DNA of 64,000 nucleotides from Diplonema japonicum (taxonomy: Eukaryota > Protista > Euglenozoa: Diplonemea). Location of the stretch: contig OZ025732.1 in assembly GCA_964019335.1 (NCBI GenBank), forward strand, positions 359,604 through 423,603, in the 5' to 3' direction. Numbering within the stretch: the stretch's first letter is position 1; every line of letters begins with the position of its first letter. The position numbers and the translations under genes were made by a program. The notes beneath the pieces were generated by a model. The model ran no database searches. It worked only from the letters and a program-made list of their open reading frames with translations, and was not told where the DNA came from. Positions 7,273 to 47,877 of the stretch are shown here, piece after piece.

Positions 7273-8487
7273 ATGAAAGGAAGCGAAGGACCACCGACAG
7301 TGACGCTGCAGGCGAGGCTCCCCACCTCTGAGACAATCAGCATTGAGGCAGTGGCTTCGGAGGAGATGATGAAGGTGAAGGAGAGGATCGCATCGATGGG
7401 AGGGTTGGATGTGGACATCTTCACCCTCACCTTCGATGGGGTGGTGGTGGCGGCGGCTGCTGACGACGGCGGTGGACAGCTTGTCGGAGATCTTCCTTTT
7501 GAGGATGGAAGCATTCTTGAAGTGGTGGTGTGCAAGAGGCAGGCGGCTCTGTTGAAGCTTTCTGGGATGGGGATCGAAGTGGAAGGAAGGGATTTTTGCG
7601 GGGTACTTGGTGATGACTGTTTGGGTTGGGACGAGAAGGACGAGAAGACGTGCGAGGTTATGAACCTTCTCCTGGATGCTGGGGTGAGTGGTGGGGAGGA
7701 GGAGGCATTTCACTTTGTGATCGAGCACGATCTTCCTTCTTGTGTGGAGGTCCTCTTGACTCGCACTTCTGTGGACGTGGATTCAGAAGTAGCTCTCCCT
7801 TTCGATTGGGTTCCGCGTACAGCACTTCACCGGGCCACTTCGGAGGAGGTGGTGGCTGTTCTCTTGAGACACAATGCAGATGTCAATGCAAGAGACTGTA
7901 GCGGTGTTCCTGTCATTCACGAAGCAGCATGTGATAAGAATTCTAGGGGCAAGCTTTCTCTACTTCTGAAACACAATGCAGATGTGAATGCAACGGACGG
8001 CGAAGGAAGGACGGCTCTTCATGGCTATGCTCACCCCTCTGCAGTTCACTTTCTTCTTGAACACAAGGCAGACATCGAGGCAAGGGACAATAAGGGAAGA
8101 ACACCCCTTTTCTTCGCTAGTTTATGGATGGCTGAAGCGCTTCTTGAGCACAATGCTGACGTGATGGCGAAGGACAATAGAGGGAACACGTGTCTGCACA
8201 CCGCTGTTGAAAGAGGTGATTTTATCGAAGTGTTGTTTGTTCTGCTGAGACACAATGCAGATGTGACGGCAGAGAACGATGAAGGGAAGACGGCTCTCGA
8301 TCTTGTTCCCTCTGATGATGATGATGATGATATTCAGGTTTTGAGTGCGATGCGATACCTGTTGCAGGACCCGAGTCTCGCTCAGGATGTGGAGCTGTTC
8401 GAAAGTATGAGAGAGCTGAGTGACGTCAGCAGGCTTCCTGTTGTTCATTTGCTTTCAGGGTATATTTGTGACAAAGTCGAGAGGTGA
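7273..8487 (+). CDS. Ubl-ankyrin repeat protein, copy 1
   Basis: Ubl-like N-terminus (VTLQARLPTSETISIE...VKERIA...LTFDG...DGSILEVV, no diglycine) followed by ankyrin repeats (GRTALH, GRTPLF, GNTCLH, GKTALD; LLxHNADVNA). Confidence 0.9.
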   Translation: MKGSEGPPTVTLQARLPTSETISIEAVASEEMMKVKERIASMGGLDVDIFTLTFDGVVVAAAADDGGGQLVGDLPFEDGSILEVVVCKRQAALLKLSGMGIEVEGRDFCGVLGDDCLGWDEKDEKTCEVMNLLLDAGVSGGEEEAFHFVIEHDLPSCVEVLLTRTSVDVDSEVALPFDWVPRTALHRATSEEVVAVLLRHNADVNARDCSGVPVIHEAACDKNSRGKLSLLLKHNADVNATDGEGRTALHGYAHPSAVHFLLEHKADIEARDNKGRTPLFFASLWMAEALLEHNADVMAKDNRGNTCLHTAVERGDFIEVLFVLLRHNADVTAENDEGKTALDLVPSDDDDDDIQVLSAMRYLLQDPSLAQDVELFESMRELSDVSRLPVVHLLSGYICDKVER

Positions 8488-8624
8488 CCATTCCACAATT
8501 CCTGGGGTATGGTTGTGGCATTGGCTTCGATTTCTTCTTTCGACCGATTCTTACCGACCGACATCGTTTGTTTGTAGAATGCCAGTATCCCCCCCCCCCC
8601 CCCCCCCCCCCTCATATATTCTAC

Positions 8625-9000
8625 CTAGACGCGAAGAAGTGCTAGTAAACCAGCTAAAGACTGGTCATCACCACCTGCTCAAAGAGGAGTACGCAACCCA
8701 ACGCACCTGCGAAAAATGTGACGGCACAACACAGAGAACACTACAACACCTCCTCCTAGAGTGCCCAGCGACCAAAGCGGCCAGAGACAAGCACTACGAC
8801 ATCCACACGCTGGAGCACATCCTCATAGACCCGAAGAGGGCAATCAAGTTCCTCGAGGACACAGAAGAGACTACCTACAAGCCCACCGGCAAGCCCCCCG
8901 ACGAGCCCACCGACTAACCCCCACCGACTAGCCGTCTACCTAGCAAGCTAGTCAAAAGGCAGCAGGAAGAAAACAAATCAAGTGTAAACAAATAGAAAAG

Positions 9001-9032
<32 letters not shown>

Positions 9033-9330
9033 AAGAAAGAAAAAATAACAAAAACCCCAACAACCCTCTTCCCCCATGTGCATCAACAAAAAAAAAAAAA
9101 AAAAAAAAAAGAAAAGAATCCCGAGGACTGGCAACCAAAGGAGAAAAAAAAAAAAAAAAAAAAAAAAAGCCATTAGCCAACTGTGGAAAGAGAATACCCA
9201 TGTCACAAAGGTGCTAGAACAATAACACAGGCCGACACGAAAGCACGAACGTCTCAACACACTTCCGTTGGCTCCACACAGCCCAGTCGGTCTGGCTAGA
9301 CCAAGAGGAGGTGGAATTTAAAAAAAAAAA
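8625..9330 (+). mobile_element. 3' fragment of LINE family B (zinc knuckle + 3' UTR + A tail)
   Basis: EEVLVNQLKTGHHHLLK...CEKC...HLLLECP is homologous to the end of 373..2520; the UTR is repeated at 47850-48266 and partly at 26982-27115. Confidence 0.85.
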
Positions 9331-9339
9331 TAAAATAAC

Positions 9340-10150: not shown

Positions 10151-11308
10151 ATGAGCCTCGCAGTGTTGATCAGGACTGTCGACGAGGATGTGGTGCACGA
10201 GGTGGAGCTGTCTGGGTTTGACAGGGTGAAGGACCTGTACAGGAAGGCGGCAGAGGCTTCTGCGGTGGAGGAGGGGATGTTCCTCTTGCACTTCGAAGGT
10301 GTTGTCTTGGATAATGATGGGACATCTGGCGGTGGTGGGGAGGAGCAGGAGATACAGCAGCTTGGGATGGGGCAGGGGAGCGAGCTTCTCTTGTGCGGTA
10401 TTCATAAAACACTTGATGTCAGTCATGTGGAACTCTCGAGTCGAAAAGAGGAGATTGCAAGGTGTCTTGAGGAGAATCCTGAGCTTCTTCTTTCGGTGGA
10501 TGTCACTGGTCTGGACTGTCTTGATGGAAGGCTCACAAGCAAGCTTCCCTCAGAGCTTCGGCACCTCAAGGTGTGGACCCTGGGCGACGGTGCGACCTCT
10601 ATTGGGGACTCCTTTTTGTCTGGCTCCTTACTCGTCACCTTGGACCTGACGGCCTTGCAGGGTCTTCAGTCCGTTGGGCACTATTTTCTCCGCGAGTGCA
10701 GCTCCCTAGCTACTGTTGATCTGAGTCCTTTGCAGAATGTTCAGTCCATTGGGAACTATTTTCTCTTTTTTTGCAGCTCTCTGAAGACTGTTGATCTGAG
10801 CCCCCTTCGCAATGTCACCACCGTCGGCACCTGTTTTCTCGCTGGCCTCAAGTCGTTGGCTTCTGTTGACCTGAGCCCCTTGCAGAATGTGACCAGCATG
10901 AACCACTGTTGTTTCATGACTTTTTGTTCTTCTTTAAGATCTATCGATCTGAGCCCCCTGCACAACACCTTTACCCATACATCCAGTGTGGCCTATATTC
11001 TCAAGGAATGCAAAGCTCTAACGACTGTGGATCTGGGTCCTTTGTGGAACGTTCAGTCAGTTGGCGATGGTTTTCTCCTCAACTGCGAGTCTTTGGAAAC
11101 AATTGATCTGAGCCCCCTTCGCAATGTCACCACCGTCGGCAGCTGTTTTCTTTCAGGGACCCCAGTGGAACACAGAGAGGATGTTGTGGAATTCCTCAGA
11201 CCACGGGTACAGAAGCGCCCCGAGCAACCAGCAAGGCCAATAAGGTTCCGGGGCCCTCCTGTGAGGCAAGCAACCTGTAAAAGTAAAGAGTGTTGCATCG
11301 TTTCCTGA
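10151..11308 (+). CDS. Ubl + BspA-like LRR protein, apparently intact; ends CCIVS
   Basis: Ubl-like N-terminus; about 8 repeats of SLxTVDLSPLxNVxxVGxxFLxxC. Confidence 0.88.
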   Translation: MSLAVLIRTVDEDVVHEVELSGFDRVKDLYRKAAEASAVEEGMFLLHFEGVVLDNDGTSGGGGEEQEIQQLGMGQGSELLLCGIHKTLDVSHVELSSRKEEIARCLEENPELLLSVDVTGLDCLDGRLTSKLPSELRHLKVWTLGDGATSIGDSFLSGSLLVTLDLTALQGLQSVGHYFLRECSSLATVDLSPLQNVQSIGNYFLFFCSSLKTVDLSPLRNVTTVGTCFLAGLKSLASVDLSPLQNVTSMNHCCFMTFCSSLRSIDLSPLHNTFTHTSSVAYILKECKALTTVDLGPLWNVQSVGDGFLLNCESLETIDLSPLRNVTTVGSCFLSGTPVEHREDVVEFLRPRVQKRPEQPARPIRFRGPPVRQATCKSKECCIVS

Positions 11309-11311
11309 TGA

Positions 11312-11530: not shown

Positions 11531-12404
11531 AAGAAAAAGAATTAGCAAATTAGCAACGTTGTTTGTTGCCCTCCCCCACCCCCTTTTTATCTTCTTCACT
11601 TTCTCATATCCTTTTCCCCTTTTTCCCATTCGCCCCCTCCCCCACCCCCTTCACCTACCACCCACCAGGGAAGAAAGAAAGTAGTATTTCTCGAACAAGA
11701 AGTCATCGGAATTTAGAAAAAAGAAGAGTTGCGTCTCGTATTCACACCTTTTATATTTCCTCCTTTGCAAGGTCACGTTCAAGCAGACAGAACACAACAA
11801 CAAAACAAGAAAAAGGAGAAGATGAACGACATGACGGTGTTCGTGAAGACGGGAGGCGGGGTTCACGATGTGGAAGTGTCGGGGAAGGAGACGGTGGGGA
11901 TCCTACAAGAAGGCGGGGTGTGCTGCTGGTTTACTCGAAGGCAGGTTCAAACTGGTTTGGGAGGGTGAGGTCCTTGACAGGAACGGCTGTGAAGAGCTTC
12001 AGCAACTTGGGCTTGTGGAGGGCTTCCATGGCACAAGATCTTCGGCGACCCAGCAGTCCGCACGGCATGCCCAAACCCGAAGATCTTGGACAGAGTTAGG
12101 GTTTGCAATCGACTTGGGAAGACTGTACGCTCCGCGGTGTGCAATGTCAGCCAGGTCAGCCTCGCTGGCGTAAGACCGAAAACGAGCGATGTTGACCCAT
12201 GCCCTTGCGCCAAGTGGAACTCCTCGCACCAGCACGAAGGACACACATGCGGTATCGCCTCGGAGCTGACAGACGACGAGCAACTGCTGAAGATCCTAAG
12301 CATGGGTATGAAGTTCCGCCTGTCAGTCGACGCGCTCACGAGCTCCGAAAACCTGGAACAAGACTTGGTCGGCTTCGTAAACCTTCACCCTCGCGTCTGA
12401 AAGA

Positions 12405-19211: not shown

Positions 19212-20030
19212 ATGAACGATATAACAGTGTTCGTGAAGACGGGAGGCGGGGTTCACGATGTGGAGGTGTCGGGGAAGGAGACGGTGGGGATCCTGTACAA
19301 GAAGGCGGGGTGTGCTGCTGGTTTACTCAAGGGCAAGTTCAAACTGGTTTGGGAGGGAGATGTTTTGGACAGGAACGGCTGTGAAGAGCTTCAGCAACTT
19401 GGATTCGTGGATGGCTGCGTGGTCCATGTGGAGCCGGGTGTAACCGTTCGGCTGGATGCACTGAAGGATAAGGGTTCAGGAGTAGTTTTGGAACTGGAGG
19501 GGCTTGTGTCAGATGACCCTGAGCTGGTTCTGGTGGTGGAGGTGGCGTGTGTCGATGTGTTGTCCATGAAGAAGGAGGACCTTCCTTCTGGACTTCGGTT
19601 CCTCGTTGTCACCGACTCCACAGGCTGTGTTACAAGTATAGACGATTGGTTTCTTTATGAGTGCGACCACCTGTCATCTGTCTCACTCATCCTCCCCCAT
19701 GTTACTTCGATTGGTTCTGAATTCTTGTCGGGGTGCGAGAACCTAGAAACCATCGACTTGAATGCGATGGTTAACGTTTGCTCTCTTGGTCATTCCTTTT
19801 TGTCGATGTGCAAAAGACTAGGTGGCATCGACTTGAGTTCGATGTCCGGTATTCGTACCATTGGTGATTCTTTCTTGTCAGGGTGCGAGAGACTAGAGGC
19901 CATCGACTTAACTGCGATGGAGGAGGTTTCTTCCATTTCTCATCACTTCTTGTCGGGGTGCGAAAGACTAGTAACCGTCAGGTTGAGTGCGATGGCCAGG
20001 ACTTCTGCTGACGCAGGGATAATTCCATAG
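19212..20030 (+). CDS. Ubl + BspA-like LRR protein (3' end probably truncated near 20000)
   Basis: Same Ubl head as 4321 and 11822; LRR units IGxxFLSGCExLExIDLxAM. Confidence 0.82.
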   Translation: MNDITVFVKTGGGVHDVEVSGKETVGILYKKAGCAAGLLKGKFKLVWEGDVLDRNGCEELQQLGFVDGCVVHVEPGVTVRLDALKDKGSGVVLELEGLVSDDPELVLVVEVACVDVLSMKKEDLPSGLRFLVVTDSTGCVTSIDDWFLYECDHLSSVSLILPHVTSIGSEFLSGCENLETIDLNAMVNVCSLGHSFLSMCKRLGGIDLSSMSGIRTIGDSFLSGCERLEAIDLTAMEEVSSISHHFLSGCERLVTVRLSAMARTSADAGIIP

Positions 20031-22243: not shown

Positions 22244-23365
22244 ATGAAAGGAAGCGAAGGACCATCGGCAGTGACGCTGCAGGCGAGGCTCCCCACCTCT
22301 GAGACCATCAGCATTGAGGCAGTGGCTTCGGAGGAGATGAAGAAGGTGAAGGAGAGGATCGCATCGATGGGAGGGTTTGATGTGGACATCTTCACCCTCA
22401 CCTTCGATGGGGTGGTGGTGGCGGCGGCTGCTGACGACGGCGGTGGACAGCTTGTCGGAGATCTTCCTTTTGAGGATGGAAGCATTCTTGAAGTGGTGGT
22501 GTGCAAGAGGCAGGCGGCTCTGTTGAAGCTTTCTGAGTTGGGTATCGAGGTGGAAGGATACGATTTACTTGGTGATGCCTTTTCAGATTTGATAAACGAG
22601 GAGGACAAAATAGCAGACGAGAGGATTTGCGAGGTTGTGAGCCTTCTCCTGGATGCTGGGGTGAGTGGTGGGGAGGAAGTGGCCCTTCACAGGGCGGCCA
22701 ACCTCAATCTTCCTTCTTGTGTGGAGGTCCTCTTGACTCGTACTTCTGTGGACGTGAATTCAGAGGTTTTTCTTCCTGAGGAGTGGTGTGATTCGTGTAC
22801 AGCACTTCACCGGGCCACTTCGGAGGAGGTGGTGGCTATTCTCTTGAGACACAATGCAGATGTCAACGCAAAGGACAGTGGCGGTGAGCCTGTCATTCAC
22901 TATGCAGCACGTTGGAGTCCGGTGGGCACGCTTTCTGTACTTCTGGAGCACAATGCCGATGTAAATGCGAGAGGCAGGAGAGGAAGGACGGCTCTTCATG
23001 TCTCCTCTGAAATTGAGCACCGGCCGCCAAAGGTTCACCTGCTTCTTGAACACAAGGCAGACATCGAAGCAAAAGACAACGAGGGAAGAACACCCCTTTT
23101 CACGACTAATAGTTTAAAGGTGGCTGAAGCACTTCTTGAGCACAATGCTGATGTGAAGGCAAGGGACAATAGAGGGAACACGTGTCTGCACAACGCTGTT
23201 GAAAGAGGTTGGTACAAAGTGTTACCTGTTCTGCTGAGACACAATGCAGATGTGACGGTAATGAACGATGAAGGGAAGACGGCTCTCGATCTTGTCCCCT
23301 CTGATGACAGCGACAAGGTCAAGGCGATGCGGTACCTGTTGCAGGAACCTCAGTCTCGCTCATGA
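22244..23365 (+). CDS. Ubl-ankyrin repeat protein, copy 2 (C-terminal tail altered by indels)
   Basis: Family motifs; ATG follows the shared TACCACATAACC leader. Confidence 0.88.
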   Translation: MKGSEGPSAVTLQARLPTSETISIEAVASEEMKKVKERIASMGGFDVDIFTLTFDGVVVAAAADDGGGQLVGDLPFEDGSILEVVVCKRQAALLKLSELGIEVEGYDLLGDAFSDLINEEDKIADERICEVVSLLLDAGVSGGEEVALHRAANLNLPSCVEVLLTRTSVDVNSEVFLPEEWCDSCTALHRATSEEVVAILLRHNADVNAKDSGGEPVIHYAARWSPVGTLSVLLEHNADVNARGRRGRTALHVSSEIEHRPPKVHLLLEHKADIEAKDNEGRTPLFTTNSLKVAEALLEHNADVKARDNRGNTCLHNAVERGWYKVLPVLLRHNADVTVMNDEGKTALDLVPSDDSDKVKAMRYLLQEPQSRS

Positions 23366-24094: not shown

Positions 24095-25348
24095 ATGAAA
24101 GGAAGCGAAGGACCATCGGCAGTGACGCTGCAGGCGAGGCTCCCCACCTCTGAGACCATCAGCATTGAGGCAGTGGCTTCGGAGGAGATGAAGAAGGTGA
24201 AGGAGAGGATCGCATCGATGGGAGGGTTGGATGTGGACATCTTCACCCTCACCTTCGATGGGGTGATGGTGGCGGCGGCAGCGGCTGCTGACGACGGCGG
24301 TGGACAGCTTGTCGGAGATCTTCCTTTTGAGGATGGAAGCATTCTTGAGGTGGTGGTGTGCAAGAGGCAGGCGGCTCTGTTGAAGCTTTCTGAGTTGGGT
24401 ATCGAGGTGGAAGGATGGGATTTACTTGGTGATGCCTTTTCAGATTTGATAAACGAGAAGAACAAAATAGCAGACGAGAGGATTTGCGAGGTTGTGAGCC
24501 TTCTCCTGGATGCTGGGGTGAGTGGTGGGGAGGAAGTGGCCCTTCACAGGGCGGCCAACCTCAATCTTCCTTCTTGTGTGGAGGTCCTCTTGACTCGCAC
24601 TTCTGTGGACGTGAATTCAGTGGTTTTTCTTCCTGAGGAGTGGTGTGATCCGTGTACAGCACTTCACCGGGCCACTTCGGAGGTGGCGGCTGTTCTCTTG
24701 AGACACAATGCAGATGTCAACGCAAGAGACGGTGACGGTGTTCCTGTCATTCACGAAGCAGCATGTGGGAAGCAATCTGGGGGCAGGCTTTCTGTACTTC
24801 TGAGGTACAATGCAGATGTGAATGCAAGAGACAGGGAAGGAAAGACTGCTCTTCATGACGGCCGGTTCAGTCCTCACCCCTCTGCTGTACGACTGCTTCT
24901 TGAGCACGGGGCAGACACCGAGACAAGAGACGACCGGGGAAGAACACCTCTTTTCTTGGCTGGTTTAGAGGTGGCTGAGGCACTTCTTGATCACGGTGCT
25001 GATGTGAAGGCAAGAGACAATAGAGGGAACACGTGTCTGCACCACCCTGTTGAAAGAGGCTTGTTCGAGGTGTTACCTGTTCTGCTGAGGCACAATGCAG
25101 ATGTGACGGCAAGGAACGATGAAGGGAAGACGGCTCTCGATCTTGTCTACTCTGACAACAGGAACAGGTTGAGGGCGACAGTGCTCTACGGGGGGGACTT
25201 GTTCAAGGCGGTGCGACACCTGTTGCAGGACCCGAGTCTCGCTCATGATCTGGAGCTATTCGAAAATGGGAGGGAGCTGAGCGACGTCAACAGGCTTCCT
25301 GTTGTTCAACTGATATCTAGAGAGATCGGTAAGAGAAGGAGCCGCTGA
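24095..25348 (+). CDS. Ubl-ankyrin repeat protein, copy 3 (mosaic of copies 2 and 4)
   Basis: Family motifs; preceded in frame by a short Ubl-LRR-type start fragment (about 23960-24060). Confidence 0.9.
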   Translation: MKGSEGPSAVTLQARLPTSETISIEAVASEEMKKVKERIASMGGLDVDIFTLTFDGVMVAAAAAADDGGGQLVGDLPFEDGSILEVVVCKRQAALLKLSELGIEVEGWDLLGDAFSDLINEKNKIADERICEVVSLLLDAGVSGGEEVALHRAANLNLPSCVEVLLTRTSVDVNSVVFLPEEWCDPCTALHRATSEVAAVLLRHNADVNARDGDGVPVIHEAACGKQSGGRLSVLLRYNADVNARDREGKTALHDGRFSPHPSAVRLLLEHGADTETRDDRGRTPLFLAGLEVAEALLDHGADVKARDNRGNTCLHHPVERGLFEVLPVLLRHNADVTARNDEGKTALDLVYSDNRNRLRATVLYGGDLFKAVRHLLQDPSLAHDLELFENGRELSDVNRLPVVQLISREIGKRRSR

Positions 25349-25571: not shown

Positions 25572-26804
25572 ATGAGCGGGAACGAAGGACCACCGACAGT
25601 AACGCTGCAGGCGAGGCTCCCCACCTCTGAGACCATCAGCATTGAGGCAGTGGCTTCGGAAGAGATGAAGAAGGTGAAGGAGAGGATCGCATCGATGGGA
25701 GGGTTGGATGTAGACAGCTTCACCCTCACCTTCGATGGGGTGGTGGTGGCGGCGGCTTCTGATGACGGCGGTGGACAGCTCGTCGGAGATCTTCCTTTTG
25801 AGGATGGAAGCATGCTTGAGGTGGTGGTGTGCAAGAGGCAGGTGGCTCTGTTGAAGCTTTCTGAGATGGGGATCGAAGTGAAAGGAAGGGACTTGTTCGA
25901 GGTAATTGATGAAAGGCAAGGGCGCAACAGAGAGGGGGTCTGTGAGGTTGTGAACCTTCTCCTGGATGCTGGGGTGAGTGGCAGGGAGGAGGAGTCCCTT
26001 CACAGGGCGGCCGAGCACAATCTTCCTTCTTGTGTGGAGGTCCTCTTGACTCGCACTTCTGTGGACGTGAATTCAAAAGTGTCTTTACCTGGCGATTGGA
26101 GGAGTACGTGCACAGCACTTCACCGGGCAACTTCGGAGGTGGTGGCTGTTCTCTTGAGACACAATGCAGATGTCAACGCAAGAGACGGTGACGGTGTTCC
26201 TGTCATTCACGAAGCAGCATGTGGGAAGCAGCCTGGGGGCAAGCTATCTGTACTTCTGAGGTACAATGCAGATGTGAATGCAAGAAACAGGGAAGGAAAG
26301 ACTGCTCTTCATGACGGCCGGTTCAGTCCTCACCCCTCTGCTGTACGACTGCTTCTTGAGCACGGGGCAGACACCGAGACAAGAGACGACCGGGGAAGAA
26401 CACCTCTTTTCTTGGCTGGTTTAGAGGTGGCTGAGGCACTTCTTGATCACGGTGCTGATGTGAAGGCAAGAGACAATAGAGGGAACACGTGTCTGCACCA
26501 CCCTGTTGAAAGAGGCTTGTTCGAGGTGTTACCTGTTCTGCTGAGGCACAATGCAGATGTGACGGCAAGGAACGATGAAGGGAAGACGGCTCTCGATCTT
26601 GTCTACTCTGACAACAGGGACAGGTTGAGGGCGATAGTGTTCTACGGGGAGGACTTGTTCAAGGCGGCGCGACACCTGTTGCAGGACCCGAGTCTCGCTC
26701 ATGATCTGGAGCTATTCGAAAATGGGAGGGAGCTGAGCGACGTCAACAGGCTTCCTGTTGTTCAACTGATATCTAGAGAGATCGGTAAGAGAAGGAGCCG
26801 CTGA
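25572..26804 (+). CDS. Ubl-ankyrin repeat protein, copy 4
   Basis: Family motifs, intact ORF. Confidence 0.9.
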   Translation: MSGNEGPPTVTLQARLPTSETISIEAVASEEMKKVKERIASMGGLDVDSFTLTFDGVVVAAASDDGGGQLVGDLPFEDGSMLEVVVCKRQVALLKLSEMGIEVKGRDLFEVIDERQGRNREGVCEVVNLLLDAGVSGREEESLHRAAEHNLPSCVEVLLTRTSVDVNSKVSLPGDWRSTCTALHRATSEVVAVLLRHNADVNARDGDGVPVIHEAACGKQPGGKLSVLLRYNADVNARNREGKTALHDGRFSPHPSAVRLLLEHGADTETRDDRGRTPLFLAGLEVAEALLDHGADVKARDNRGNTCLHHPVERGLFEVLPVLLRHNADVTARNDEGKTALDLVYSDNRDRLRAIVFYGEDLFKAARHLLQDPSLAHDLELFENGRELSDVNRLPVVQLISREIGKRRSR

Positions 26805-28440: not shown

Positions 28441-29547
28441 ATGAAGGGAGGCGAAGGACCATCGGCAGTGACGCTGCAGGCGAGGCTCCCCACCTCTGAG
28501 ACCATCAGCATTGAGGCAGTGGCTTCGGAGGAGATGATGAAGGTGAAGGAGAGGATCGCATCGATGGGAGGGTTGGATGTGGACATCTTCACCCTCACCT
28601 TCGATGGGGTGGTGGTGGCGGCGGCTGCTGACGACGGCGGTGGACAGCTCGTCGGAGATCTTCCTTTTGAGGATGGAAGCATTCTTGAAGTGGTGGTGTG
28701 CAAGAGGCAGGCGGCTCTGTTGAGACTCTCTGGGATGGGGGTCAAGGTGAAAGGAAAGGATTTGTTCGGAGCACATGCGGACTTTTCAGGTTTTTTCGTG
28801 AGCAACAAGGCCGAAATAGAGGAGGACAAGATGTGCGAGGTTGTGAACCTTCTCCTGGATGCTGGGGTGAGTGGTTGGGAGAAGAAGGCCCTTCACGTGG
28901 CGGCCAAGCTCAGCTTTCTTTCTTGTGTGGAGGTCCTCTTGACTCGCACTTCTGTGGACGTGAATTCAGAAGTAGGTTTTCCTGACGAGTGGATGCATCT
29001 GCGTACGGCACTTCACCGGGCCACTTCGGAGGAGGTGGTGGCTCTTCTCTTGAGACACAATGCAGATGTGAATGCGAGAAACGGGAATGGAGGGACCGTT
29101 CTTCATCGCTATTTTCACCCTTCTGTAGTACACCTTCTTCTTGAACACAGGGCGGACACCGAGGCAAAGGACAGGGAGGGAAGAACACCCCTTTTCATGG
29201 CTAATTTAGAGGTGGCTGAGGCACTTCTTGAGCACAATGCTGATGTGAAGGCGAGGGACAATAGAGGGAACACGTGTCTGCACCACGCTGTTGAAAGAGG
29301 TGATTTCAATGTGTTACCTATTCTGCTGAGACACAATGCAGATGTGACGGCAAGAAACGATGAGGGGAAGACGGCTCTCGATCTTGTTCCCTCTGATAGC
29401 AGGTACTTGAGTGCGATGCGATACCTGTTGGAGGACCCGAGTCTCGCTCATGATCTGGAGCTGTTCGAAAGTGGGAGGGAGCTGAGCGACGTCAGCAGGC
29501 TTCCTGTTGTTCAACTGATTTCAGGGAGTATTTCCCCGTCAGGTTGA
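28441..29547 (+). CDS. Ubl-ankyrin repeat protein, copy 5 (one ankyrin repeat fewer)
   Basis: Family motifs; lacks the GxPVIHxAA repeat. Confidence 0.9.
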   Translation: MKGGEGPSAVTLQARLPTSETISIEAVASEEMMKVKERIASMGGLDVDIFTLTFDGVVVAAAADDGGGQLVGDLPFEDGSILEVVVCKRQAALLRLSGMGVKVKGKDLFGAHADFSGFFVSNKAEIEEDKMCEVVNLLLDAGVSGWEKKALHVAAKLSFLSCVEVLLTRTSVDVNSEVGFPDEWMHLRTALHRATSEEVVALLLRHNADVNARNGNGGTVLHRYFHPSVVHLLLEHRADTEAKDREGRTPLFMANLEVAEALLEHNADVKARDNRGNTCLHHAVERGDFNVLPILLRHNADVTARNDEGKTALDLVPSDSRYLSAMRYLLEDPSLAHDLELFESGRELSDVSRLPVVQLISGSISPSG

Positions 29548-30488: not shown

Positions 30489-30818
30489 ATGAATGGAAGC
30501 GAAGAACCATCGGCAGTGATGCTGCAGGCGAGGCTCCCCACCTCTGAGACCATCAGCATTGAGGCAGTGGCTTCGGAGGAGATGATGAAGGTGAAGGAGA
30601 GGATCGCGTCGATGGGAGGGTTGGATGTGAACATCCTCACCCTCACCTTCGATGGGGAGGTGGTGGCGGCTGCTGGAGACGGCAGTAGTGGACAGCTCGT
30701 CGGAGATCTTCCTTTTGAGGATGGAAGCATGCTTGAAGTGGTGGTGTGCAAGAGGCAGGCGGCTCTGTTGAAGCTTTCTGAGATGGGGATCAAGGTGAGA
30801 GGAAGGGATTTTGTTTAG
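30489..30818 (+). pseudogene. Ubl-only truncated copy of the Ubl-ANK family (copy 6)
   Basis: Ubl head intact, stop right after GRDFV, no ankyrin sequence follows. Confidence 0.8.
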
Positions 30819-31722: not shown

Positions 31723-32816
31723 ATGAAGGGAAGCGAGGGACCATCGACAGTGACGCTGCAGGCGAGGCTCCCCACCTCTGAGACCATCAGCATTGAGGCA
31801 GTGGCTTCGGAGGAGATGATGAAGGTGAAGGAGAGGATCGCATCGATGGGAGGGTTGGATGTGGACATCTTCACCCTCACCTTCGATGGGGTGGTGGTGG
31901 CGGCGGCTGCTGACGACGGCGGTGGACAGCTTGTCGGAGATCTTCCTTTTGAGGATGGAAGCATGCTTGAAGTGGTGGTGTGCAAGAGGCAGGCGGCTCT
32001 GTTGAAGCTTTCTGGGATGGGGATCAAGGTGAGAGGAAGGGATTTGTACGAGATGTTTGGAAGCTATTCAGGTTTGGACGAGAACAAGATGTGCGAGGTT
32101 ATGAACCTTCTCCTGGATGCTGGGTGAGTGGCAGGGAGGAGGAGGCCCTTCACAAAGCGGCCAAGCTCGATCTTCCTTCTTGTGTGGAGGTCCTCTTGAT
32201 TCGCACTTCTGTGGACGTGAATTCAGTAGTGTCTCTTCCTGGCGGTTGCAGGGAGGATTCGGACACAGCACTTCACCGGGCCACTTCGGAGGAGGTGGTG
32301 GCTCTTCTCTTGAGACACAATGCAGATGTGAATGCGAGGAACAGCGAAGGAAAGACGGCTCTTCATAGCTACCATGCTCACCCCTCTGTAGTACACCTTC
32401 TTCTTGAACACAAGGCAGACATCGAAGCGAAGGACAACGAGGGAAGAACACCCCTTTTCTTGGCTAGTTTATGGGTGGCTGGAGCGCTTCTTGAGCACAA
32501 TGCTGATGTGAGGGCAAGGGACAATAGAGAGAACACGTGTCTGCACCACGCCGTTAATAGTGGTAGTTTAGAAGAGGTACTTATTCTTCTGAGACACAAT
32601 GCAGATGTTACGGCGAGGAATGATGAAGGGAAGACGGCTCTCGATCTTGTCCCTTCTGATGATGATGATAGCGACCCGTGTCCGATGCGGTACCTGTTGC
32701 AGGACCCGAGTATCGCTCATGATCTGGAGCTGTTCGAAAGTGGGAGGGAGCTGAGCGACAGCAGCAGGCTTCCTGTTGTTCAACTGATTTCAAAGAGTAT
32801 TCGGGGTGAAGATTAG
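31723..32816 (+). pseudogene. Ubl-ankyrin copy 7 with a single -1 frameshift near 32123 (pseudogene or sequencing error)
   Basis: GATGCTGGGTGAGT here versus GATGCTGGGGTGAGT in paralogues; ORFs 31723..32127 and 31980..32816 join into a full protein. Confidence 0.85.
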
Positions 32817-33191
32817 TGTTGTTGATCTGATTTCTTACTTTTCTTACTTTTTGCTTCTCCTTTCTACCTTCTTTCCCTTTCAAACAGCATTTCTGAGACC
32901 ATGATGAGGTTTCAGATGGCATAGCGCAGGTTTTCAGAATTTTATCATTCCATTTTATGTGATATGCCTACTTTTTTTGCTTCTACGGAAGCAGTTGGTT
33001 GTAATTTGGGTTTCTTCACCCTCCTTCTGCCGCCTCCCCTTTTCCGCGCACAGGTTCTTCTTTGGTGTGGTGGGCTGGGAGGTCCTTCGAGTGTGCCAGA
33101 TTTCCTCAGTGTTTTGTTATTTTACTTATGTACTTTTTGCTTTCTTCTTCCATAGCTAACTTTGCACAAATAAGAAGGATACCACATAACC

Positions 33192-34568
33192 ATGAGCGGG
33201 AACGAAGGACCATCGGCAGTGACGCTGCAGGCGAGGCTCCCCACCTCTGAGACCATCAGCATTGAGGCAGTGGCTTCGGAGGAGATGAAGAAGGTGAAGG
33301 AGAGGATCGCATCGATGGGGGGGTTGGATGTGGACAGCTTCACCCTCACCTTCGATGGGGAGGTGGTGGCGGCGGCTGCTGACGACGGCTGTGGACAGCT
33401 CGTCGGAGATCTTCCTTTTGAGGATGGAAGCATGCTTGAAGTGGTGGTGTGCAAGAGGCAGGCGGCTCTGTTGAAGCTTTCTGGGATGGGGATCGAAGTG
33501 AAAGGAAAGGACTTGTTCGAGGAGATTGATGAAGGGCAAGGTTGGTACAACGGAGAGGGGCAGGTCTGCGAGGTTTTGAACCTTCTCCTGGATGCTGGAG
33601 TGAGTGGTGGGGAGGAGGAGGCCCTTCACATGGCGGCCCAGTGCGATCTTCCTTCTTGTGTGGAGGTCCTCTTGGCTCGCACTTCTGTGGACGTGAATTC
33701 AGATGTGTGTCTTCCTGACGATTGGATCGATAGGTTCAATTCAGCACTTCAACGGGCCCATTCGGAGGAGGTGGTGGCTGTTCTCTTGAGGCACAATGCA
33801 GATGTCAACGCAAGAGACTGTGATGGTGTTCCTATCATTCACCATGCAGTACGCTGGGGGCATACTGGAAGGCTTTCTGTACTTCTGGAGCACAATGCAG
33901 ATGTGAATGCGAGAGACGAGAAAGGAAAGACGGCTCTTCATGGCCATCGTGTTCACCCCTCTGCTGTACACCTTCTTCTTGAACACAAGGCAGACATCGA
34001 GGCAAAGGACAACGAGGGAAGGACACCCCTTTTCTTCGCTGATTTGGAGCTGGCGGAAGCACTTGTTGAGCACAATGCTGATGTCAACGCAAGAGACCGT
34101 GATGGTGTTCCTGTCATTCACTATGCAGAGGGGAGCGTGCTTTCTCTACTTCTGAAGCACAACGCTGATGTAAATGCGAGAGGCAGCCGAGGGGAGACGG
34201 CTCTTCATGGCCTTCATGCTCACCCCTCTGTACAACTGCTTCTTGAGCACAAGGCAGACATCGAGGCAAAAGACAACGAGGGAAGAACACCCCTTTCCTT
34301 GGCTAATAATTTAGGGGTGGTTGAAGCACTTCTTGAGCACAATGCTGATGTGAAGGCAAGGGATAATAGAGGGAACACGTGTCTGCACCATGCTGTTGAA
34401 AGACGTTTCTTCCATGTGTTACCTATTCTGCTGAGACACAATGCAGATGTGATGGCAACGAACGATGAAGGGAAGACGGCTCTCGATCTTGTTCCCTCTG
34501 ATGATGATGATGGTGAAGTCGACTCGTGTGCGATGCGATACCTGTTGCAGGACCCGAGTCGCTCATGA
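33192..34568 (+). CDS. Ubl-ankyrin repeat protein, copy 8 (extra ankyrin repeats, frameshifted tail)
   Basis: The VIH/TALH/TPL three-repeat block occurs twice; 2-bp deletion near 34560. Confidence 0.87.
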   Translation: MSGNEGPSAVTLQARLPTSETISIEAVASEEMKKVKERIASMGGLDVDSFTLTFDGEVVAAAADDGCGQLVGDLPFEDGSMLEVVVCKRQAALLKLSGMGIEVKGKDLFEEIDEGQGWYNGEGQVCEVLNLLLDAGVSGGEEEALHMAAQCDLPSCVEVLLARTSVDVNSDVCLPDDWIDRFNSALQRAHSEEVVAVLLRHNADVNARDCDGVPIIHHAVRWGHTGRLSVLLEHNADVNARDEKGKTALHGHRVHPSAVHLLLEHKADIEAKDNEGRTPLFFADLELAEALVEHNADVNARDRDGVPVIHYAEGSVLSLLLKHNADVNARGSRGETALHGLHAHPSVQLLLEHKADIEAKDNEGRTPLSLANNLGVVEALLEHNADVKARDNRGNTCLHHAVERRFFHVLPILLRHNADVMATNDEGKTALDLVPSDDDDGEVDSCAMRYLLQDPSRS

Positions 34569-40881: not shown

Positions 40882-42108
40882 ATGAAGGGAAGCAAAGGAC
40901 CATCGGCAGTGACGCTGCAGGCGAGGCTCCCCACCTCTGAGACCATCGTCATTGAGGCAGTGGCTTCGGAGGAGATGAAAAAGGTGAAGGCGAGGATCGC
41001 ATCGATGGGAGGGTTGGATGTGGACATCTTCACCCTCACCTTCGATGGGGAGGTGGTTGCGGCGGCTGCTGACGGCGGCGGTGGACAGCTCGTCGGAGAT
41101 CTTCCTTTTGAGGATGGAAGCATGCTTGAGGTGGTGGTGTGCAAGAGGCAGGCGGCTCTGTTGAATCTCTCTGAGATGGGAGTCAATGTGAAAGGAAGGG
41201 ACCTGTTCGGAGTCTTATGTGAACTTTCAGAAATTGACGAGGTGGGCATCATAGAAGACGAGGTTGAAGCTTGTACTGTAGGCCTTCTCCTGGATGCTGG
41301 GGTGAGTGGCAGGGAGGAGGAGGCCCTTCACAAGGCGGCCAGGCACAATCTTCCTTCTTGTGTGGAGGTCCTCTTGACTCGCACTTCTGTGGACGTGAAT
41401 TTACAACTACGTTATCCTACCGATTGGGAGGATTCGTGCACAGCACTTCATCGGGCCACTTCGGAGGAGGTGGCGGCTATTCTCTTGAGACACAATGCAG
41501 ATGTTAACGCGAGAGACAGTGGCGATGTTCCTGTCATTCACTATGCAGCACGTAAAGAACATCCTGCGGGTTTGCTTTCTGTACTTCTGAGACACAATGC
41601 TGATGTGAATGCGAGGGACAGGGAAGGGAAGACGGCTCTTCATGATGCTGAACCATCAGCGGTACACCTTCTTCTTGAGCACAAGGCAGACATCGAGGCA
41701 AAGGACAACGAGGGAAGAACACCCCTTTTCTTGTCTAGTTATGGGGCGGCACTTACTCGTTTAAGGGTAGCAAAGGTACTTCTTGAGAACAATGCTGATG
41801 TGGATGCGAGGGATATTAGAGGGAACACGTGTCTGCACCACGCTGTTAGTAGAGATTGGTTCGAAGTGTTACCTATTCTGCTGAGACACAATGCAGATGT
41901 GACAACTACGAACGATGACGGGAAGACGGCTCTCGATCTTGTCCCTTCTGATGATGATAGCGACTCGTGTCCAAGGCGATACCTGTTGGAGGACCCGAGT
42001 CTCGCTCGTGATCTGGAGCTGTTCGGAAGTGGGAGGGAGCTGAGCGACGTCAGCAGGCTTCCTGTTGTTCAACGGATTTCAGATTTTATTCGTTGGAATC
42101 TTTTATGA
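40882..42108 (+). CDS. Ubl-ankyrin repeat protein, copy 9
   Basis: Family motifs, intact ORF. Confidence 0.9.
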   Translation: MKGSKGPSAVTLQARLPTSETIVIEAVASEEMKKVKARIASMGGLDVDIFTLTFDGEVVAAAADGGGGQLVGDLPFEDGSMLEVVVCKRQAALLNLSEMGVNVKGRDLFGVLCELSEIDEVGIIEDEVEACTVGLLLDAGVSGREEEALHKAARHNLPSCVEVLLTRTSVDVNLQLRYPTDWEDSCTALHRATSEEVAAILLRHNADVNARDSGDVPVIHYAARKEHPAGLLSVLLRHNADVNARDREGKTALHDAEPSAVHLLLEHKADIEAKDNEGRTPLFLSSYGAALTRLRVAKVLLENNADVDARDIRGNTCLHHAVSRDWFEVLPILLRHNADVTTTNDDGKTALDLVPSDDDSDSCPRRYLLEDPSLARDLELFGSGRELSDVSRLPVVQRISDFIRWNLL

Positions 42109-42336
42109 TGATCACTCCACATGCCCCCTGAGCCTTGTAAGTTCGAAGGGTTTTTTGTTTTGGTTATTTGGGCAAGGACAACGGGCAGATTTCCAGGGAG
42201 ACAACAGGAGGAAGGTACCCACGCGGCCCAGCAGGTGTTAGCAACACATCCCAACGCCACCCCAACGAGCTGGGGGGCGACAGATAGATGCCCCCTCCCC
42301 GGTCGTCCGATGGGTGCGGCACGCCATGTCTGAAAT

Positions 42337-43830: not shown

Positions 43831-45057
43831 ATGAAAGGAAGCGAGGTCATGAAGGGAAGCAAAGGACCATCGGCAGTGACGCTGCAGGCGAGGCTCCCCA
43901 CCTCTGAGACCATCAGCATTGAGGCAGTGGCTTCGGAGGAGATGATGAAGGTGAAGGAGAGGATCGCATCGATGGGAGGGTTGGATGTGGACTTCTTCAC
44001 CCTCACCTTCGATGGGGTGGTGGTTGCGGCGGCTGCTGACGGCGGCGGTGGACAGCTTGTCGGAGATCTTCCTTTTGAGGATGGAAGCATGCTTGAGGTG
44101 GTGGTGTGCAAGAGGCAGGCGGCTCTGTTGAAGCTTTCTTGGATGGGGATCGAAGTGAAAGGAAGAGATTTTTACGGGGTACTTGGTGATGGCTGTTTGG
44201 GTTGGGACAAGAAGGAGGACAAGAAGATCTGCGAGGTTATGAACCTTCTCCTGGATGCTGGAGTGAGTGGTGGGGAGGAGGTGTCCCTTCACGTGGCGGC
44301 CGAGCACAATCTTCTTTCTTGTGTGGAGGTCCTCTTGACTCGCACTTCTGTGGACGTGAATTCAGAAGTAGGTTTTCCTATCGATTTGAGGGGTTCGTGC
44401 ACAGCACTTCACCGGGCAACTTCGGAGGAGGTGGTGGCTGTTCTCTTGAGACACAATGCAGATGTCAACGCAAGAGACAGTGACGGTGTTCCTATCATCC
44501 ACTGTGCAGCATGTGAGAAGAATTCTAGGGGCAAGCTTTCTGTACTTCTGGAGCACAATGCAGATGTGAATGCGAGAGACAGGGAAGGAAGGACGGCTCT
44601 TCATGGGTATGCTGACCCCTCTGCAGTACACCTTCTTCTTGAGCACAAGGCAGACATCGAGGCAAGGGACAACGAGGGAAGAACACCCCTTTTCTTGGCT
44701 ACTTTATGGGTAGCTGAGGCACTTCTTGGGCACAATGCTGATGTGAAGGCAAGAGACAATAGAGGGAACACGTGTCTGCACCACGCTGTTGAAGGTGATT
44801 TGATCGAAGTGTTGTTTGTTCTGCTGAGACACAATGCAGATGTGAAGGCAGAGAACGATGAAGGGAAGACGGCTCTCGATCTTGTTCCCTCTGATGATAT
44901 TTGGGTTTTGTGTGCGATGAGGTACCTGTTGCAAGACCCGAGTCTCGCTCAGGATGTGGAGCTGTTCGAAAGTATGAGAGAGCTGAGTGACGTCAGCAGG
45001 CTTCCTGTTGTTCATTTGCTTTCAGGGTATATTTGTGACAAACGTGTCGAGAGGTGA
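43831..45057 (+). CDS. Ubl-ankyrin repeat protein, copy 10 (closest to copy 1; alternative ATG 43849)
   Basis: Family motifs; shares CxKNSRGKLS, the HLLSGYICDK tail and both flanks with copy 1. Confidence 0.9.
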   Translation: MKGSEVMKGSKGPSAVTLQARLPTSETISIEAVASEEMMKVKERIASMGGLDVDFFTLTFDGVVVAAAADGGGGQLVGDLPFEDGSMLEVVVCKRQAALLKLSWMGIEVKGRDFYGVLGDGCLGWDKKEDKKICEVMNLLLDAGVSGGEEVSLHVAAEHNLLSCVEVLLTRTSVDVNSEVGFPIDLRGSCTALHRATSEEVVAVLLRHNADVNARDSDGVPIIHCAACEKNSRGKLSVLLEHNADVNARDREGRTALHGYADPSAVHLLLEHKADIEARDNEGRTPLFLATLWVAEALLGHNADVKARDNRGNTCLHHAVEGDLIEVLFVLLRHNADVKAENDEGKTALDLVPSDDIWVLCAMRYLLQDPSLAQDVELFESMRELSDVSRLPVVHLLSGYICDKRVER

Positions 45058-45227
45058 TCATTCCGCAATTCCAGGGGTATGGTTGTGGCATTGGCTTCTA
45101 TTTCTTCTTTCGATATCGTTTGTTATACGTAGAATGCCGGAACCGCCCCCCCCCCCCCCCTGAGGGCCCCCCTCATATTTTCTTTTTCGAAGGTTCGACT
45201 TCAGCTTTCCTTAGTGTTTTGTTATTA

Positions 45228-46607
45228 CTGTAAAACAAAAATCACAAGAAGATAAAATGTCCGGAAGCTCGGGCGGTCCGGATATTTTTTCTTCCGGACA
45301 TTTTTTTCCTGGGACCCCCCTTTATTAAAGGGCTGGACCCGAAAACAGATGAAACTAGTTTCTATAGCAAGAGAAAATCAAACAAAAATCAGAGAATTGA
45401 ATTACGGACTTTTCCAAGAACTAAAAGACACCTCAGATCCTGATTGTTTGCTTCTACCACAAGCTTGTTGAACCAAACCACTTCTTGTGCTTGCTTTAGG
45501 GTTGTTCTTATTTTTTGCGGGTTTGCGTCATGGAGCCAATGTCCAGTATATCAGACTGGAAGCACCGCTTTGGTAGCTCCAAGGTCGATCCCCCTGCCGC
45601 ACCCGTTACTGCGGGTCGCAAGCCTCTTCTGAACTAGGAAGAAACAACAAGGCTCTTTGTTTGGATCCAGATGCAGAACGGAAGGGGGGTGCCGGTAGCA
45701 GCGTCGGACATCTGCCTGTATGCAGAGGGCCAACCAGCTGTGCCCCAAGCATGGCATCACAAGCCGCCGCCCAACAATAGGGAAGTCTAGCAGCCCCAAA
45801 GACACCCAAGCAGCGAGGAGGTTCACAAAGATCAGGCCGGTTGACCTGGAACATGGACCAGCTGCTGCCGCTGGGAAGAAGACGAAAAGGTGTCCCAAGG
45901 TTGTCAAGGTTAGGGATTTGGGACAAGCGCGCCGTCACCGGACAGTTTTGCGTTTCCCTGACTGGTGGCAAACTGCACCCGCAGTTAATTTACACGGGAA
46001 AAACAGAACCAGCTCGCGGCAGGAAATACCTCGGGTCCGTCCCTCGTGTTGCACACCCCCCAAAAGGCTGGAGTTTAACAGCTTCGAAATCTCACTGGGC
46101 CACCCAGGAAACGCTTCGGCTCTGGGTAAAAGATTTGTTTCTCCCCTTTACTACAACCTCATCGAGTCATCGGGCTGAGCACCCACCGAGCCCATCCTAC
46201 TCATCCTTGATGACTACAATGTCCACACTACGCAGGCTTTTGTGAACTTGTTTTCAGAAACAAACGTTCACTTAGCGTTTGTCCCCCCAGACCTCACCTA
46301 TTTGTGCCATTAAGGCCGAGGCCAGGCGCACTGCCAAGGCTGCGAAGGCAGCAAACAAGACGGCCAGACGTGCGGACAGGTAAGATGCTGCCCTTTCCTC
46401 GCCCCCTTGGTTCTATTGTCGGGAAAAGTACTCTCCAACAGAAATATAAGTTTTCCAGACAGAGGGGGCAGTGCGTAGGTCAGGCTAGGTACCCCCTTAG
46501 AAAAGTGCCCAAAAGAATGTCCGGAAGATAAAATGTCCGGAAGAAAAAATCACCGGATGTTTCGGCGGTCCGGATATTTTATCTTCCGGTGGATTCTTGT
46601 TTTACAG
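45228..46607 (+). mobile_element. Degenerate pogo/Tigger-like (DDE_1) DNA transposon
   Basis: TIR CTGTAAAACAA(A/G)AATC with subterminal TCCGGA repeats, TA on both sides; transposase remnants DKRAVT...KLHPQLIYTGKT, SHWATQET, LLILDDYNVH, FVPPDLT. Confidence 0.85.
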
Positions 46608-46662
46608 TATTTATTTTTGTTTCTTCTTCCATAACTAACTTTGCAGGAAGGGCCACTTAACG

Positions 46663-47877
46663 ATGAATGGAAGCGAAGGACCATCGACAGTGACGCTGCA
46701 GGCGAGGCTCCCCACCTCTGAGACCATCAGCATTGAGGCAGTGGCTTCGGAGGAGATGAAAAAGGTGAAGGAGAGGATCGCATCGATGGGAGAGTTGGAT
46801 GTGGACATCTTCACCCTCACCTTCGATGGGGTGGTGGTGGCGGCGGCTGCTGACGACGGCTGTGGACAGCTTGTCGGAGATCTTCCTTTTGAGGATGGAA
46901 GCATGCTTGAGGTGGTGGTGTGCAAGAGGCAGGCGGCTCTGTTGAAGCTTTTTGGGATGGGGATCGAAGTGGAAGGAAGGGATTTGTACGAGGTAATTGA
47001 TGATAGCTTTTCAGATTGGGATGAGAAGGACGAGGAGATCTGCGAGGTTATGAACCTTCTCCTGGATGCTGGGGTGAGTGGTGGGGAGGAGGGGACCTTT
47101 CACATAGCTGCCGATCACAATCTTCCTTCTTGTGTGGAAGTCCTCTTGACTCGCACTTCTGTGGACGTGAATTCAAAGTTGTTTCTTCCTACCGATTGGG
47201 TAAGTTCATGTACGGCACTTCACCGGGCCACTTCTGGGGAGGTGGCGGCTGTTCTCTTGAGACACAATGCAGATGTCAACGCAAGAAACGGTGACGGTAA
47301 TCCTGTCATCCACGAAGTAGCATGTAGGAAGTATCCTGGTAGAAAGCTTTCTGTACTTCTGAGGCACAACGCAGATGTGAATGCAAGAAGCAGGCAGGGA
47401 AGGACGGCTCTTCATTATGCTCACCCCTCTGCTGTACACCTTCTTCTTGAGCACAAGGCAGACATCGAGGCGAGAGACAACGAGGGAAGAACACCCCTTT
47501 CCTTGGCTAATAGTTTAGAGGTGGCTGAGGCACTTCTTGGGCACAATGCTGATGTGAAGGCGAGGGACAATAGAGGGAACACGTGTCTGCACCATGCTGT
47601 TAACAGAGGCTTGTTCGAGGTGTTACCAGTTCTGCTGAGACACAATGCAAATGTGACGGCAAGGAACGATGAAGGGAAGACGGCTCTCGATCTTGTCCCC
47701 TCTGATGGCAGGGACAGGGTCAAGGCGATGCGATACCTGTTGCAGGACCCGAGTCTCGCTCATGATCTGGAGCTGTTCGAAAGTGGGAGGGAGCTGAGCG
47801 ACGTCAGCAGGCTTCCTGTTGTCCAACTGATTTCAAGGAGTATCCCGACGAGCCTACCGACTAACCCCACCGACTAG
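46663..47877 (+). CDS. Ubl-ankyrin repeat protein, copy 11 (last residues and stop supplied by a LINE-B 3' fragment)
   Basis: Family motifs; ends SIPTSLPTNPTD*. Confidence 0.9.
   Translation: MNGSEGPSTVTLQARLPTSETISIEAVASEEMKKVKERIASMGELDVDIFTLTFDGVVVAAAADDGCGQLVGDLPFEDGSMLEVVVCKRQAALLKLFGMGIEVEGRDLYEVIDDSFSDWDEKDEEICEVMNLLLDAGVSGGEEGTFHIAADHNLPSCVEVLLTRTSVDVNSKLFLPTDWVSSCTALHRATSGEVAAVLLRHNADVNARNGDGNPVIHEVACRKYPGRKLSVLLRHNADVNARSRQGRTALHYAHPSAVHLLLEHKADIEARDNEGRTPLSLANSLEVAEALLGHNADVKARDNRGNTCLHHAVNRGLFEVLPVLLRHNANVTARNDEGKTALDLVPSDGRDRVKAMRYLLQDPSLAHDLELFESGRELSDVSRLPVVQLISRSIPTSLPTNPTD

Follow-up and report, generated by a model that had tools for sequence, protein, structure and literature searches.

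The 64-kb window of Diplonema japonicum contig OZ025732.1 (the whole stretch of 64,000 nucleotides analysed here) consists of eukaryotic DNA with few introns and many retroelements. Between positions 7273 and 47877, it carries on the plus strand a tandem array of ten near-complete paralogous genes encoding an N-terminal ubiquitin-like (Ubl) domain, hereafter the head, followed by ankyrin repeats (ANK); the initial annotation had counted about ten. Seven copies are full-length open frames, two are frameshifted in the tail, and one is frameshifted mid-gene. A BLASTN search with the first copy (7273) as a query recovered 10 near-full-length copies with about 80–91% DNA identity, as well as 5 fragments. 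Fragments, genes combining a Ubl domain with leucine-rich repeats (LRR), and retroelements lie among the Ubl-ANK copies, which are designated below by their first position and form the basis of all DNA-level tests. The copies and remnants, all on the plus strand, are as follows:

7273..8487, +, Ubl-ANK copy 1, an intact gene for 404 aa; Ubl domain (residues 9-86) followed by a helical linker, a stack of about 7 ankyrin units and a tail of three helices
7297..7530, +, beta-grasp head of copy 1 (residues 9-86), derived from ubiquitin; acidic and without di-Gly, with F-D-G and P-F-E-D-G-S conserved
7786..7818, +, extended hairpin of copy 1 (residues 172-182) following SVDV, hypervariable; strongest selected sites 174, 177, 180
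22244..23365, +, Ubl-ANK copy with a frameshift in the tail and hence a short C-terminus
24095..25348, +, intact Ubl-ANK copy of chimeric make-up, the N-half resembling copy 22244 and the C-half copy 25572
25572..26804, +, Ubl-ANK copy, intact
28441..29547, +, Ubl-ANK copy, intact; one ankyrin unit fewer
31723..32816, +, Ubl-ANK copy, probable pseudogene; one-base frameshift near 32125, one unit fewer
33192..34568, +, Ubl-ANK copy with three additional units from a 267-bp internal duplication and a frameshift in the tail
40882..42108, +, the most diverged Ubl-ANK copy, intact
43849..45057, +, Ubl-ANK copy, intact; upstream in-frame ATG at 43831
46663..47877, +, Ubl-ANK copy, intact
3155..3435, +, decayed fragment of a Ubl-ANK head, located upstream of the 7273-47877 range
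5040..6926, +, ankyrin and tail fragments (5040-5247 and 6760-6926) with an insertion between them
30489..30818, +, truncated copy, head only, open for 109 codons
37669..38672, +, shattered copy of which one piece of the head and several of the tail are left
48411..48555, +, short, degraded remnants just beyond 47877

Variation is distributed very unevenly along the ten proteins. The mean pairwise amino acid identity was 0.94 for the Ubl domain, 0.78–0.80 for the ankyrin scaffold and 0.83 for the tail, while values of 0.27, 0.37 and 0.46 were calculated for the linker after the MGIEV motif, the window after SVDV and the loop preceding the tail, respectively. The variable linker had been recognised in the initial annotation, as had nine post-SVDV motifs, all of which were found on the plus strand at the copies named there; a tenth variant occurs in copy 24095. 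The ankyrin scaffold, described there as invariant, is near-invariant, since LLEHKADIEA differs in three of the ten copies and DNRGNTCLH in two. The post-SVDV window directly precedes the TALH helix and presumably occupies the position of an ankyrin hairpin, being longer than the consensus. The repeat number also differs, one unit being missing in two copies and three being added in one. The DNA alignment contains 41 distinct gap runs, of which 33 are multiples of 3; by inspection, the other eight comprise two compensating pairs, the three frameshifts, and one run in a dead tail. Copy-specific stretches are matched without a single differing letter by contigs from independent public runs (e.g., 41372-41691 in public runs X3 and X4), so the variation at these stretches is not an assembly artefact. 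In the same two runs, single head contigs are about 20–25 times deeper than copy-specific contigs, which hints at more copies elsewhere, although depth does not equal copy number. None of the 15 public runs listed was an RNA run; run X6 has an uneven depth pattern, and its contigs cannot show expression.

Diversification of the ankyrin body

Site-model tests, suggested in the initial annotation, were run on a codon alignment built unit by unit, from whose 438 columns 75 that were rich in insertions or deletions (indels) were removed, and which was divided into four regions with separate trees. We implemented the codon models ourselves, keeping branch lengths fixed to scale and calculating posteriors by naive empirical Bayes. 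For the ankyrin body, the likelihood ratio test (LRT) statistic was 80.2 for M1a/M2a (omega2 of 4.4 at 15% of sites) and 79.5 for M8a/M8. The head gave 2.3 in both comparisons, that is, no selection signal at low power. The body value fell to 44.6 when multi-nucleotide changes were allowed, to 22.0 when rates could vary among sites, and to 13.2 (p=0.0014) when the two were combined; the six full-length non-chimeric copies taken separately (F61 frequencies) gave 46.2. In 36 neutral simulations on a mosaic genealogy, with a new one every 15 codons, the LRT ranged from 0.4 to 49.5 and never reached 80. The plain test is therefore inflated by recombination, but the observed value still lies beyond the neutral maximum.

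Comparison of site classes points in the same direction. The omega of the binding-face class was 1.62 when it was given its own silent rate (p=0.03) and 2.5 with a shared rate, versus 0.70 for the framework, and 1.62 was reached in 10 of 268 neutral simulations. A posterior above 0.8 was obtained for 11 of 40 binding-face sites versus 4 of 158 framework sites. The top selected residues, numbered in copy 7273, are 148, 174, 177, 180 and 317, together with 397 near the C-terminus; we take the selected positions to resemble those randomised by protein engineers in designed ankyrin repeat proteins (DARPins). Judged from these codon models, the ankyrin body has likely evolved under positive selection of moderate strength, with a modest enrichment at predicted binding-face positions.

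A number of points weigh against treating these bodies as a set of selected binding faces. The strictest model cuts the LRT six-fold, and the recombination-driven inflation noted above affects the plain test. Silent divergence, too, is raised at binding positions (1.40 versus 0.83, LRT 4.6). Purifying selection acts weakly, with an omega of 0.70 for the framework and 0.49 (M0) for the head; 47–64% of body sites are near an omega of 1, and frameshifts are present in three of the ten copies. The site list had already been seen when the binding class was defined, and the class includes the visibly variable hairpin, without which the counts fall to 6 of 31 versus 4 of 158; the clustering on one surface was derived from the repeat register rather than from model coordinates.

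Turnover of the array is evident. Pseudogenes, fragments and a chimera support its description as a birth-and-death family: copy 24095 is a mosaic of copies 22244 and 25572, and in most copies the nearest-neighbour copy changes along the length. At four-fold sites, divergence was 0.052 in the head versus 0.133 in the body, with non-overlapping intervals, and silent divergence was 0.31 in the head versus 0.60–0.96 in the body, so that silent sites of the head are about 2.5-fold less diverged. Since silent sites are also little diverged, one copy is chimeric and distant relatives have only 38% identity in the Ubl domain, the constancy of the head is partly homogenisation at the DNA level, and inter-copy exchange likely accounts for much of its near-invariance. 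The constant head of the initial annotation thus holds within the array as a description, while its constancy cannot be ascribed wholly to constraint. Constraint still shows at greater evolutionary depth, where 29 relatives with ankyrin repeats had an identity of 38% in the Ubl domain versus 18–29% downstream.

These data also bear on a neutral explanation, in which relaxed amplification in a transposon-rich region, with conversion homogenising head and scaffold and the variable windows escaping it, would mimic selection. The low silent divergence of the head, the higher silent divergence of the binding class, the values of mosaic simulations, the framework omega, the frameshifts and fragments, and the retroelements between copies all speak for it. 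Nevertheless, the observed LRT exceeds all 36 simulations and survives the models with rate variation and multi-base changes, the selected sites track the ankyrin binding register, indels preserve the frame, and dozens of distant relatives, the traced ones being from the D. japonicum transcriptome, keep the head motif. We therefore regard purely neutral diversification as rather unlikely.

The acidic head and its relatives

A first structure model, based on a 10-row alignment, gave a predicted local distance difference test (pLDDT) of only about 30 for the head, which was raised by a 37-row alignment. In the latter model, the first 200 residues (pLDDT 91) form a beta-grasp domain, a short helical linker and ankyrin repeats. 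The head superimposes on ISG15, SUMO and ubiquitin with Z of 11–12 and a root mean square deviation of 1.2–1.9 Å over 72–79 residues. Fold scores tie SUMO, the SUMO-like domain (SLD) SLD2, ISG15 and ubiquitin, and ubiquitin is closest in sequence: the head profile matched it with E of about 1e-10, and the top 60 solved matches were all ubiquitin or its variants. Di-glycine after the last strand is present in none of the 37 rows, and in the model a helix follows instead. The N-terminal beta-grasp domain lacking di-glycine that had been predicted from the sequence is thus borne out by the model (Z about 12).

The ankyrin body was modelled with high confidence as a standard stack ending in three helices; Pfam Ank scored above the cut-off in all seven copies scanned, and Foldseek matched DARPins and ankyrins. 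Pfam scans at E up to 0.1 revealed no UBA or other ubiquitin-binding domain, and no Pfam match to F-box, BTB or SOCS box was found in whole proteins or tails. For the C-terminal tail, tested in four copies, Pfam gave no match even at E up to 10, and a likeness to the SOCS box seen by eye was not supported by Pfam. The tail is missing from two of the ten copies and from the relative P0001. Structure prediction of a head homodimer scored 0.02 and was not used as evidence.

A search with the head profile against 1.84 billion representative sequences yielded 161 hits. Among the best 150 of them, 35 proteins with a single N-terminal match were kept; hits with several matching stretches were dropped, three of which were scanned and proved to be ubiquitin repeats. 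In these at least 35 head relatives, the head is followed by ankyrin repeats in 31 cases, by tetratricopeptide repeats (TPR) in 2, and by nothing further in 2. The 18 relatives traced to species are all proteins of the D. japonicum transcriptome, so relatives of the head are transcribed in this species. The two TPR proteins, P0057 and P0115 of D. japonicum, carry a P-F-E-D head and lack the linker helix of the ankyrin members. On the phylogenetic tree, three window heads form one shallow clade beside P0001 inside a deep radiation; therefore, the array appears to be a recent burst within an older expansion. A word-index search of longer proteins, in which 7993 candidates were scored, returned 11 EukProt proteins. 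No relative of the head was found among 39 pattern matches from viral contigs, 588 from metagenome contigs and 443 from prokaryote genomes, which, given the narrow patterns, is weak evidence against an origin outside diplonemids.

The register of ubiquitin was transferred to the head by the profile alignment, and residues were counted among 34 relatives. The equivalent of Leu8 is Pro in 29 of 34 and hydrophobic in one; that of Ile44 is hydrophobic in 8, that of Val70 in 17, and that of His68 is variable. In the window copies, Pro, Thr and Val stand at the positions of Leu8, Ile44 and Val70, respectively. Acidic residues occupy the Lys48 position in 25 of 34 relatives (D/E) and the Gln49 position in 22. 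Conserved positions are those of Ala46 (D/E in 32 of 34), Asn60 (Pro in 30), Gln62 (Glu; acidic in 25), Lys63 (Asp in 33) and Ser65 (Ser in 31), the conserved acidic motifs being F-D/E-G-E-E and P-F-E-D, and the median net charge of the head is -8. From the structure of ubiquitin, we take the equivalents of Ala46, Asn60, Gln62, Lys63 and Ser65 to lie together on one face. It counts against a functional reading of this face that the relatives were found with a profile holding the acidic motif, which inflates the motif conservation. A UFD-type degron was considered and set aside, the equivalents of Lys48 and Lys63 not being lysine.

The initial annotation had proposed docking of the Ubl domain on the proteasome. 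Rpn1 binds ubiquitin via L8, I44 and V70 (PMC8405992), and with the Leu8/Ile44/His68 patch lost (Leu8 replaced by Pro and Ile44 by variable polar residues, His68 variable, Lys48 and Gln49 mostly Glu) canonical docking becomes unlikely. A broader version, in which the Ubl domain docks directly on the 26S proteasome in the manner of shuttle proteins or midnolin and ankyrin-bound proteins are delivered for degradation, would agree with an N-terminal ubiquitin-derived Ubl domain without di-Gly. It also has a precedent, as midnolin, according to the description in PMC12088389, engages RPN11 through a Ubl domain with little identity to ubiquitin, working together with a C-terminal helix on RPN1, and the Ubl-ANK proteins likewise end in a helical tail. 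However, midnolin requires an extended segment ending in Gly105 (PMC12088389), while here a helix directly follows the Ubl domain, and the tail is dispensable in the two copies and in P0001. Given these differences and the loss of L8 and I44 and acidity at K48, direct proteasome docking appears unlikely.

Acidic beta-grasp domains have other partners. The acidic residues described for the binding of Ubc9 by SLD2 domains are Smt3 D68, Rad60 E380 and NFATC2IP D394 (PMC7849368, PMC11065178). We assume that the conserved D/E at the Ala46 position corresponds to them. The atypical Ubl domain of yeast Ddi1 binds ubiquitin (PMC4962041); binding of Ubc9 by SUMO-like domains and of ubiquitin by Ddi1 provides a precedent for non-canonical partners. 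One could hypothesise that the head imitates SUMO or SLD2, docks on the backside of the SUMO E2 enzyme Ubc9, and promotes SUMOylation of ankyrin-bound targets. The window copies do show weak Pfam matches to Rad60-SLD (E 0.002–0.09). Against this role, the head is nearest to ubiquitin in sequence, the tied fold scores do not single out SUMO, and what we take for the second acidic site of SUMO is Ser in this head, making a cofactor of SUMO conjugation very unlikely.

Ubl-LRR genes and neighbouring elements

Three to five Ubl-LRR genes or remnants, with LRRs of the BspA type, are interleaved with the Ubl-ANK copies, a feature missed in the initial annotation:

4321..5016, +, Ubl-LRR (BspA type), truncated; different but homologous head, 5' leader common with Ubl-ANK copies
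10151..11308, +, Ubl-LRR (BspA type), 385 aa
11822..17885, +, Ubl-LRR gene interrupted by a retroelement of about 5.5 kb; 16-bp target word duplicated at 12009 and 17537
19212..20030, +, Ubl-LRR gene, 272 aa
23960..24064, +, Ubl-LRR head fragment, in frame, just upstream of copy 24095

Their heads represent two further types, homologous to the Ubl-ANK head (hhalign probability of 95%). With the same head on ANK (31 of 35) and TPR (2 of 35) and a homologous Ubl domain on LRRs, the head is modular. A near-identical 5' leader, made up of a pyrimidine tract and about 30 bases preceding the ATG, was found at about 4290-4323 (Ubl-LRR) and at 25545-25574, 28414-28443 and 33165-33194 (Ubl-ANK), and this sequence likeness suggests exchange between the two subfamilies.

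The retroelement inside the Ubl-LRR gene (12025-17536) contains a reverse transcriptase (RT) at 12381-15179, which weakly matches RVT_1 (E 0.0013) and presumably is Penelope-like, followed by a long Pro/Thr/Asp/Val repeat frame (14812-17205); a similar end sequence occurs near 5843-6080 and 38400-38550. A non-long-terminal-repeat (non-LTR) retroelement frame at 364-2520 includes RT, RNase H and a weak zinc-finger match, and its short 3' pieces are scattered through the array (e.g., 8630-8900, 23530-23630, 42330-42650). A second non-LTR family is represented by an RT frame of 857 aa (34848-37421) and a related 3' fragment (39335-40624), and downstream of both, at a distance of a few hundred bases at most, lies a Ubl-ANK copy or the remnant of one. 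DNA-transposon-like pieces were noticed by eye at 20657-21906 and 45200-46600; the latter has similar inverted ends on both sides, and its depth in public contigs far exceeds that of unique DNA.

Beyond the array, an intronless gene at 49127-52447 encodes a sterol-sensing membrane protein of the Dispatched/Patched family, 80% identical to a D. japonicum protein, 63% to one of D. ambulator and 50% to one of D. papillatum. It is followed by an intronless gene for a four-domain voltage-gated cation channel at 54485-59611 (four Ion_trans domains and GPHH) and by a 428-codon frame at 60663-61949, whose product has a hydrophobic stretch at the N-terminus and matched nothing in Pfam at E 0.1.

Possible function and relation to known systems

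Taken together, we propose, with a probability of roughly 0.4, that the array is a library of adaptors in which changing targets are bound by variable ankyrin faces and passed on by the acidic head to a single partner in the ubiquitin or SUMO system. Every ankyrin stack would have a target of its own, which the head common to all copies would deliver to a common, probably basic, partner rather than to the usual proteasome sites that read Ile44. Diversity would be supplied by point substitution, in-frame indels, shuffling of repeat units and unequal exchange, with gene conversion helping to keep the heads alike. The proteins are presumably cytosolic, as no hydrophobic signal is evident in their sequences, the head probably has a common partner, and the selection pattern suggests that the targets may be foreign, such as symbiont effectors, viral proteins or transposon proteins.

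Holosporales bacteria live inside D. japonicum and D. aggregatum (10.64898/2026.01.29.702485), and secretion systems and LRR proteins have been described for them (10.1101/719211). Such cytoplasmic bacteria, together with diversification confined to the body, would also suit decoys or sensors that bind and block symbiont or viral effectors, the Ubl domain being a stability tag or enzyme bait. However, an attacked bait should itself diversify, and the head has no selection signal, albeit at low power; moreover, a single surface conserved across distant relatives points to a host partner. A decoy role therefore seems quite unlikely.

An adaptor library would resemble the nematode F-box and MATH-BTB adaptors (Thomas 2006, as summarised in PMC4334554), which combine a constant handle with a variable binding domain, evolve by birth and death with positive selection only in the binding part, and have been proposed to act in defence. 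The handle here is a ubiquitin-like domain, in contrast to those families, and the Ubl-ANK proteins have no F-box or BTB Pfam domain. Rad23, Dsk2 and midnolin likewise have an N-terminal integral Ubl domain that is not conjugated and adjoins a target-binding part, but the head described here lacks the hydrophobic patch, is strongly acidic, is accompanied by no UBA or Catch domain, and belongs to a multi-copy, diversifying family. Rad60, Esc2 and NFATC2IP also use a non-conjugatable acidic beta-grasp domain as a protein handle; their SLDs are C-terminal, tandem and SUMO-derived, whereas this head is N-terminal and ubiquitin-derived. In ankyrin-SOCS-box (ASB) proteins and poxviral ANK/F-box proteins, ankyrin stacks likewise serve as substrate binders and are followed by a C-terminal tail of helices; the tail of the Ubl-ANK proteins differs in matching no Pfam family in the four copies tested and in being dispensable in some copies. 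To our knowledge, ANKUB1 is single-copy, and no expanded, diversifying array of it has been described; ANKRD60 is similar to ANKUB1.

ANKUB1 combines a ubiquitin domain and ankyrin repeats in one protein (PMC7284028) and was the nearest Atlas cluster, with scores of 0.83 and 0.76, which, being below 0.9, are leads only; it was not found among the 35 head relatives examined. The Ubl-ankyrin architecture is thus already known, and the evolutionary pattern is known from F-box and MATH-BTB proteins, as far as the cited accounts describe them. A literature search, with subscription journals largely outside its reach, revealed no paper on a family that is expanded and diversifying and in which ANK, TPR and LRR scaffolds carry a Ubl handle. 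The words 'ankyrin' and 'ubiquitin' do not occur in the main texts of three papers on diplonemid genomes (PMC10161547, 10.64898/2026.01.29.702485 and PMC13598402), although supplementary gene-family tables could list the expansion.

A bolder and doubtful extension of the adaptor hypothesis is that Diplonema has evolved its own adaptor class, a 'Ubl-box', in which the acidic head is the counterpart of the F-box and the ANK, TPR and LRR scaffolds are interchangeable and driven apart by an arms race; such proteins would provide intracellular immunity with a repertoire directed at proteins of endosymbionts, viruses or transposons and would use a partner surface unused by known Ubl domains.

The intracellular immunity of free-living protists is barely described, and the array would present the arms-race signature of F-box and BTB adaptors with a different handle in an abundant marine group, some species of which host cytoplasmic bacteria. 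It is also a compact natural case of ankyrin diversification. The constant head offers one bait for pull-down experiments and the selected positions a route to the targets, so that policing of symbionts or viruses by a protist becomes testable; if the partner of the head proves to be new, it would represent an additional route into the ubiquitin system.

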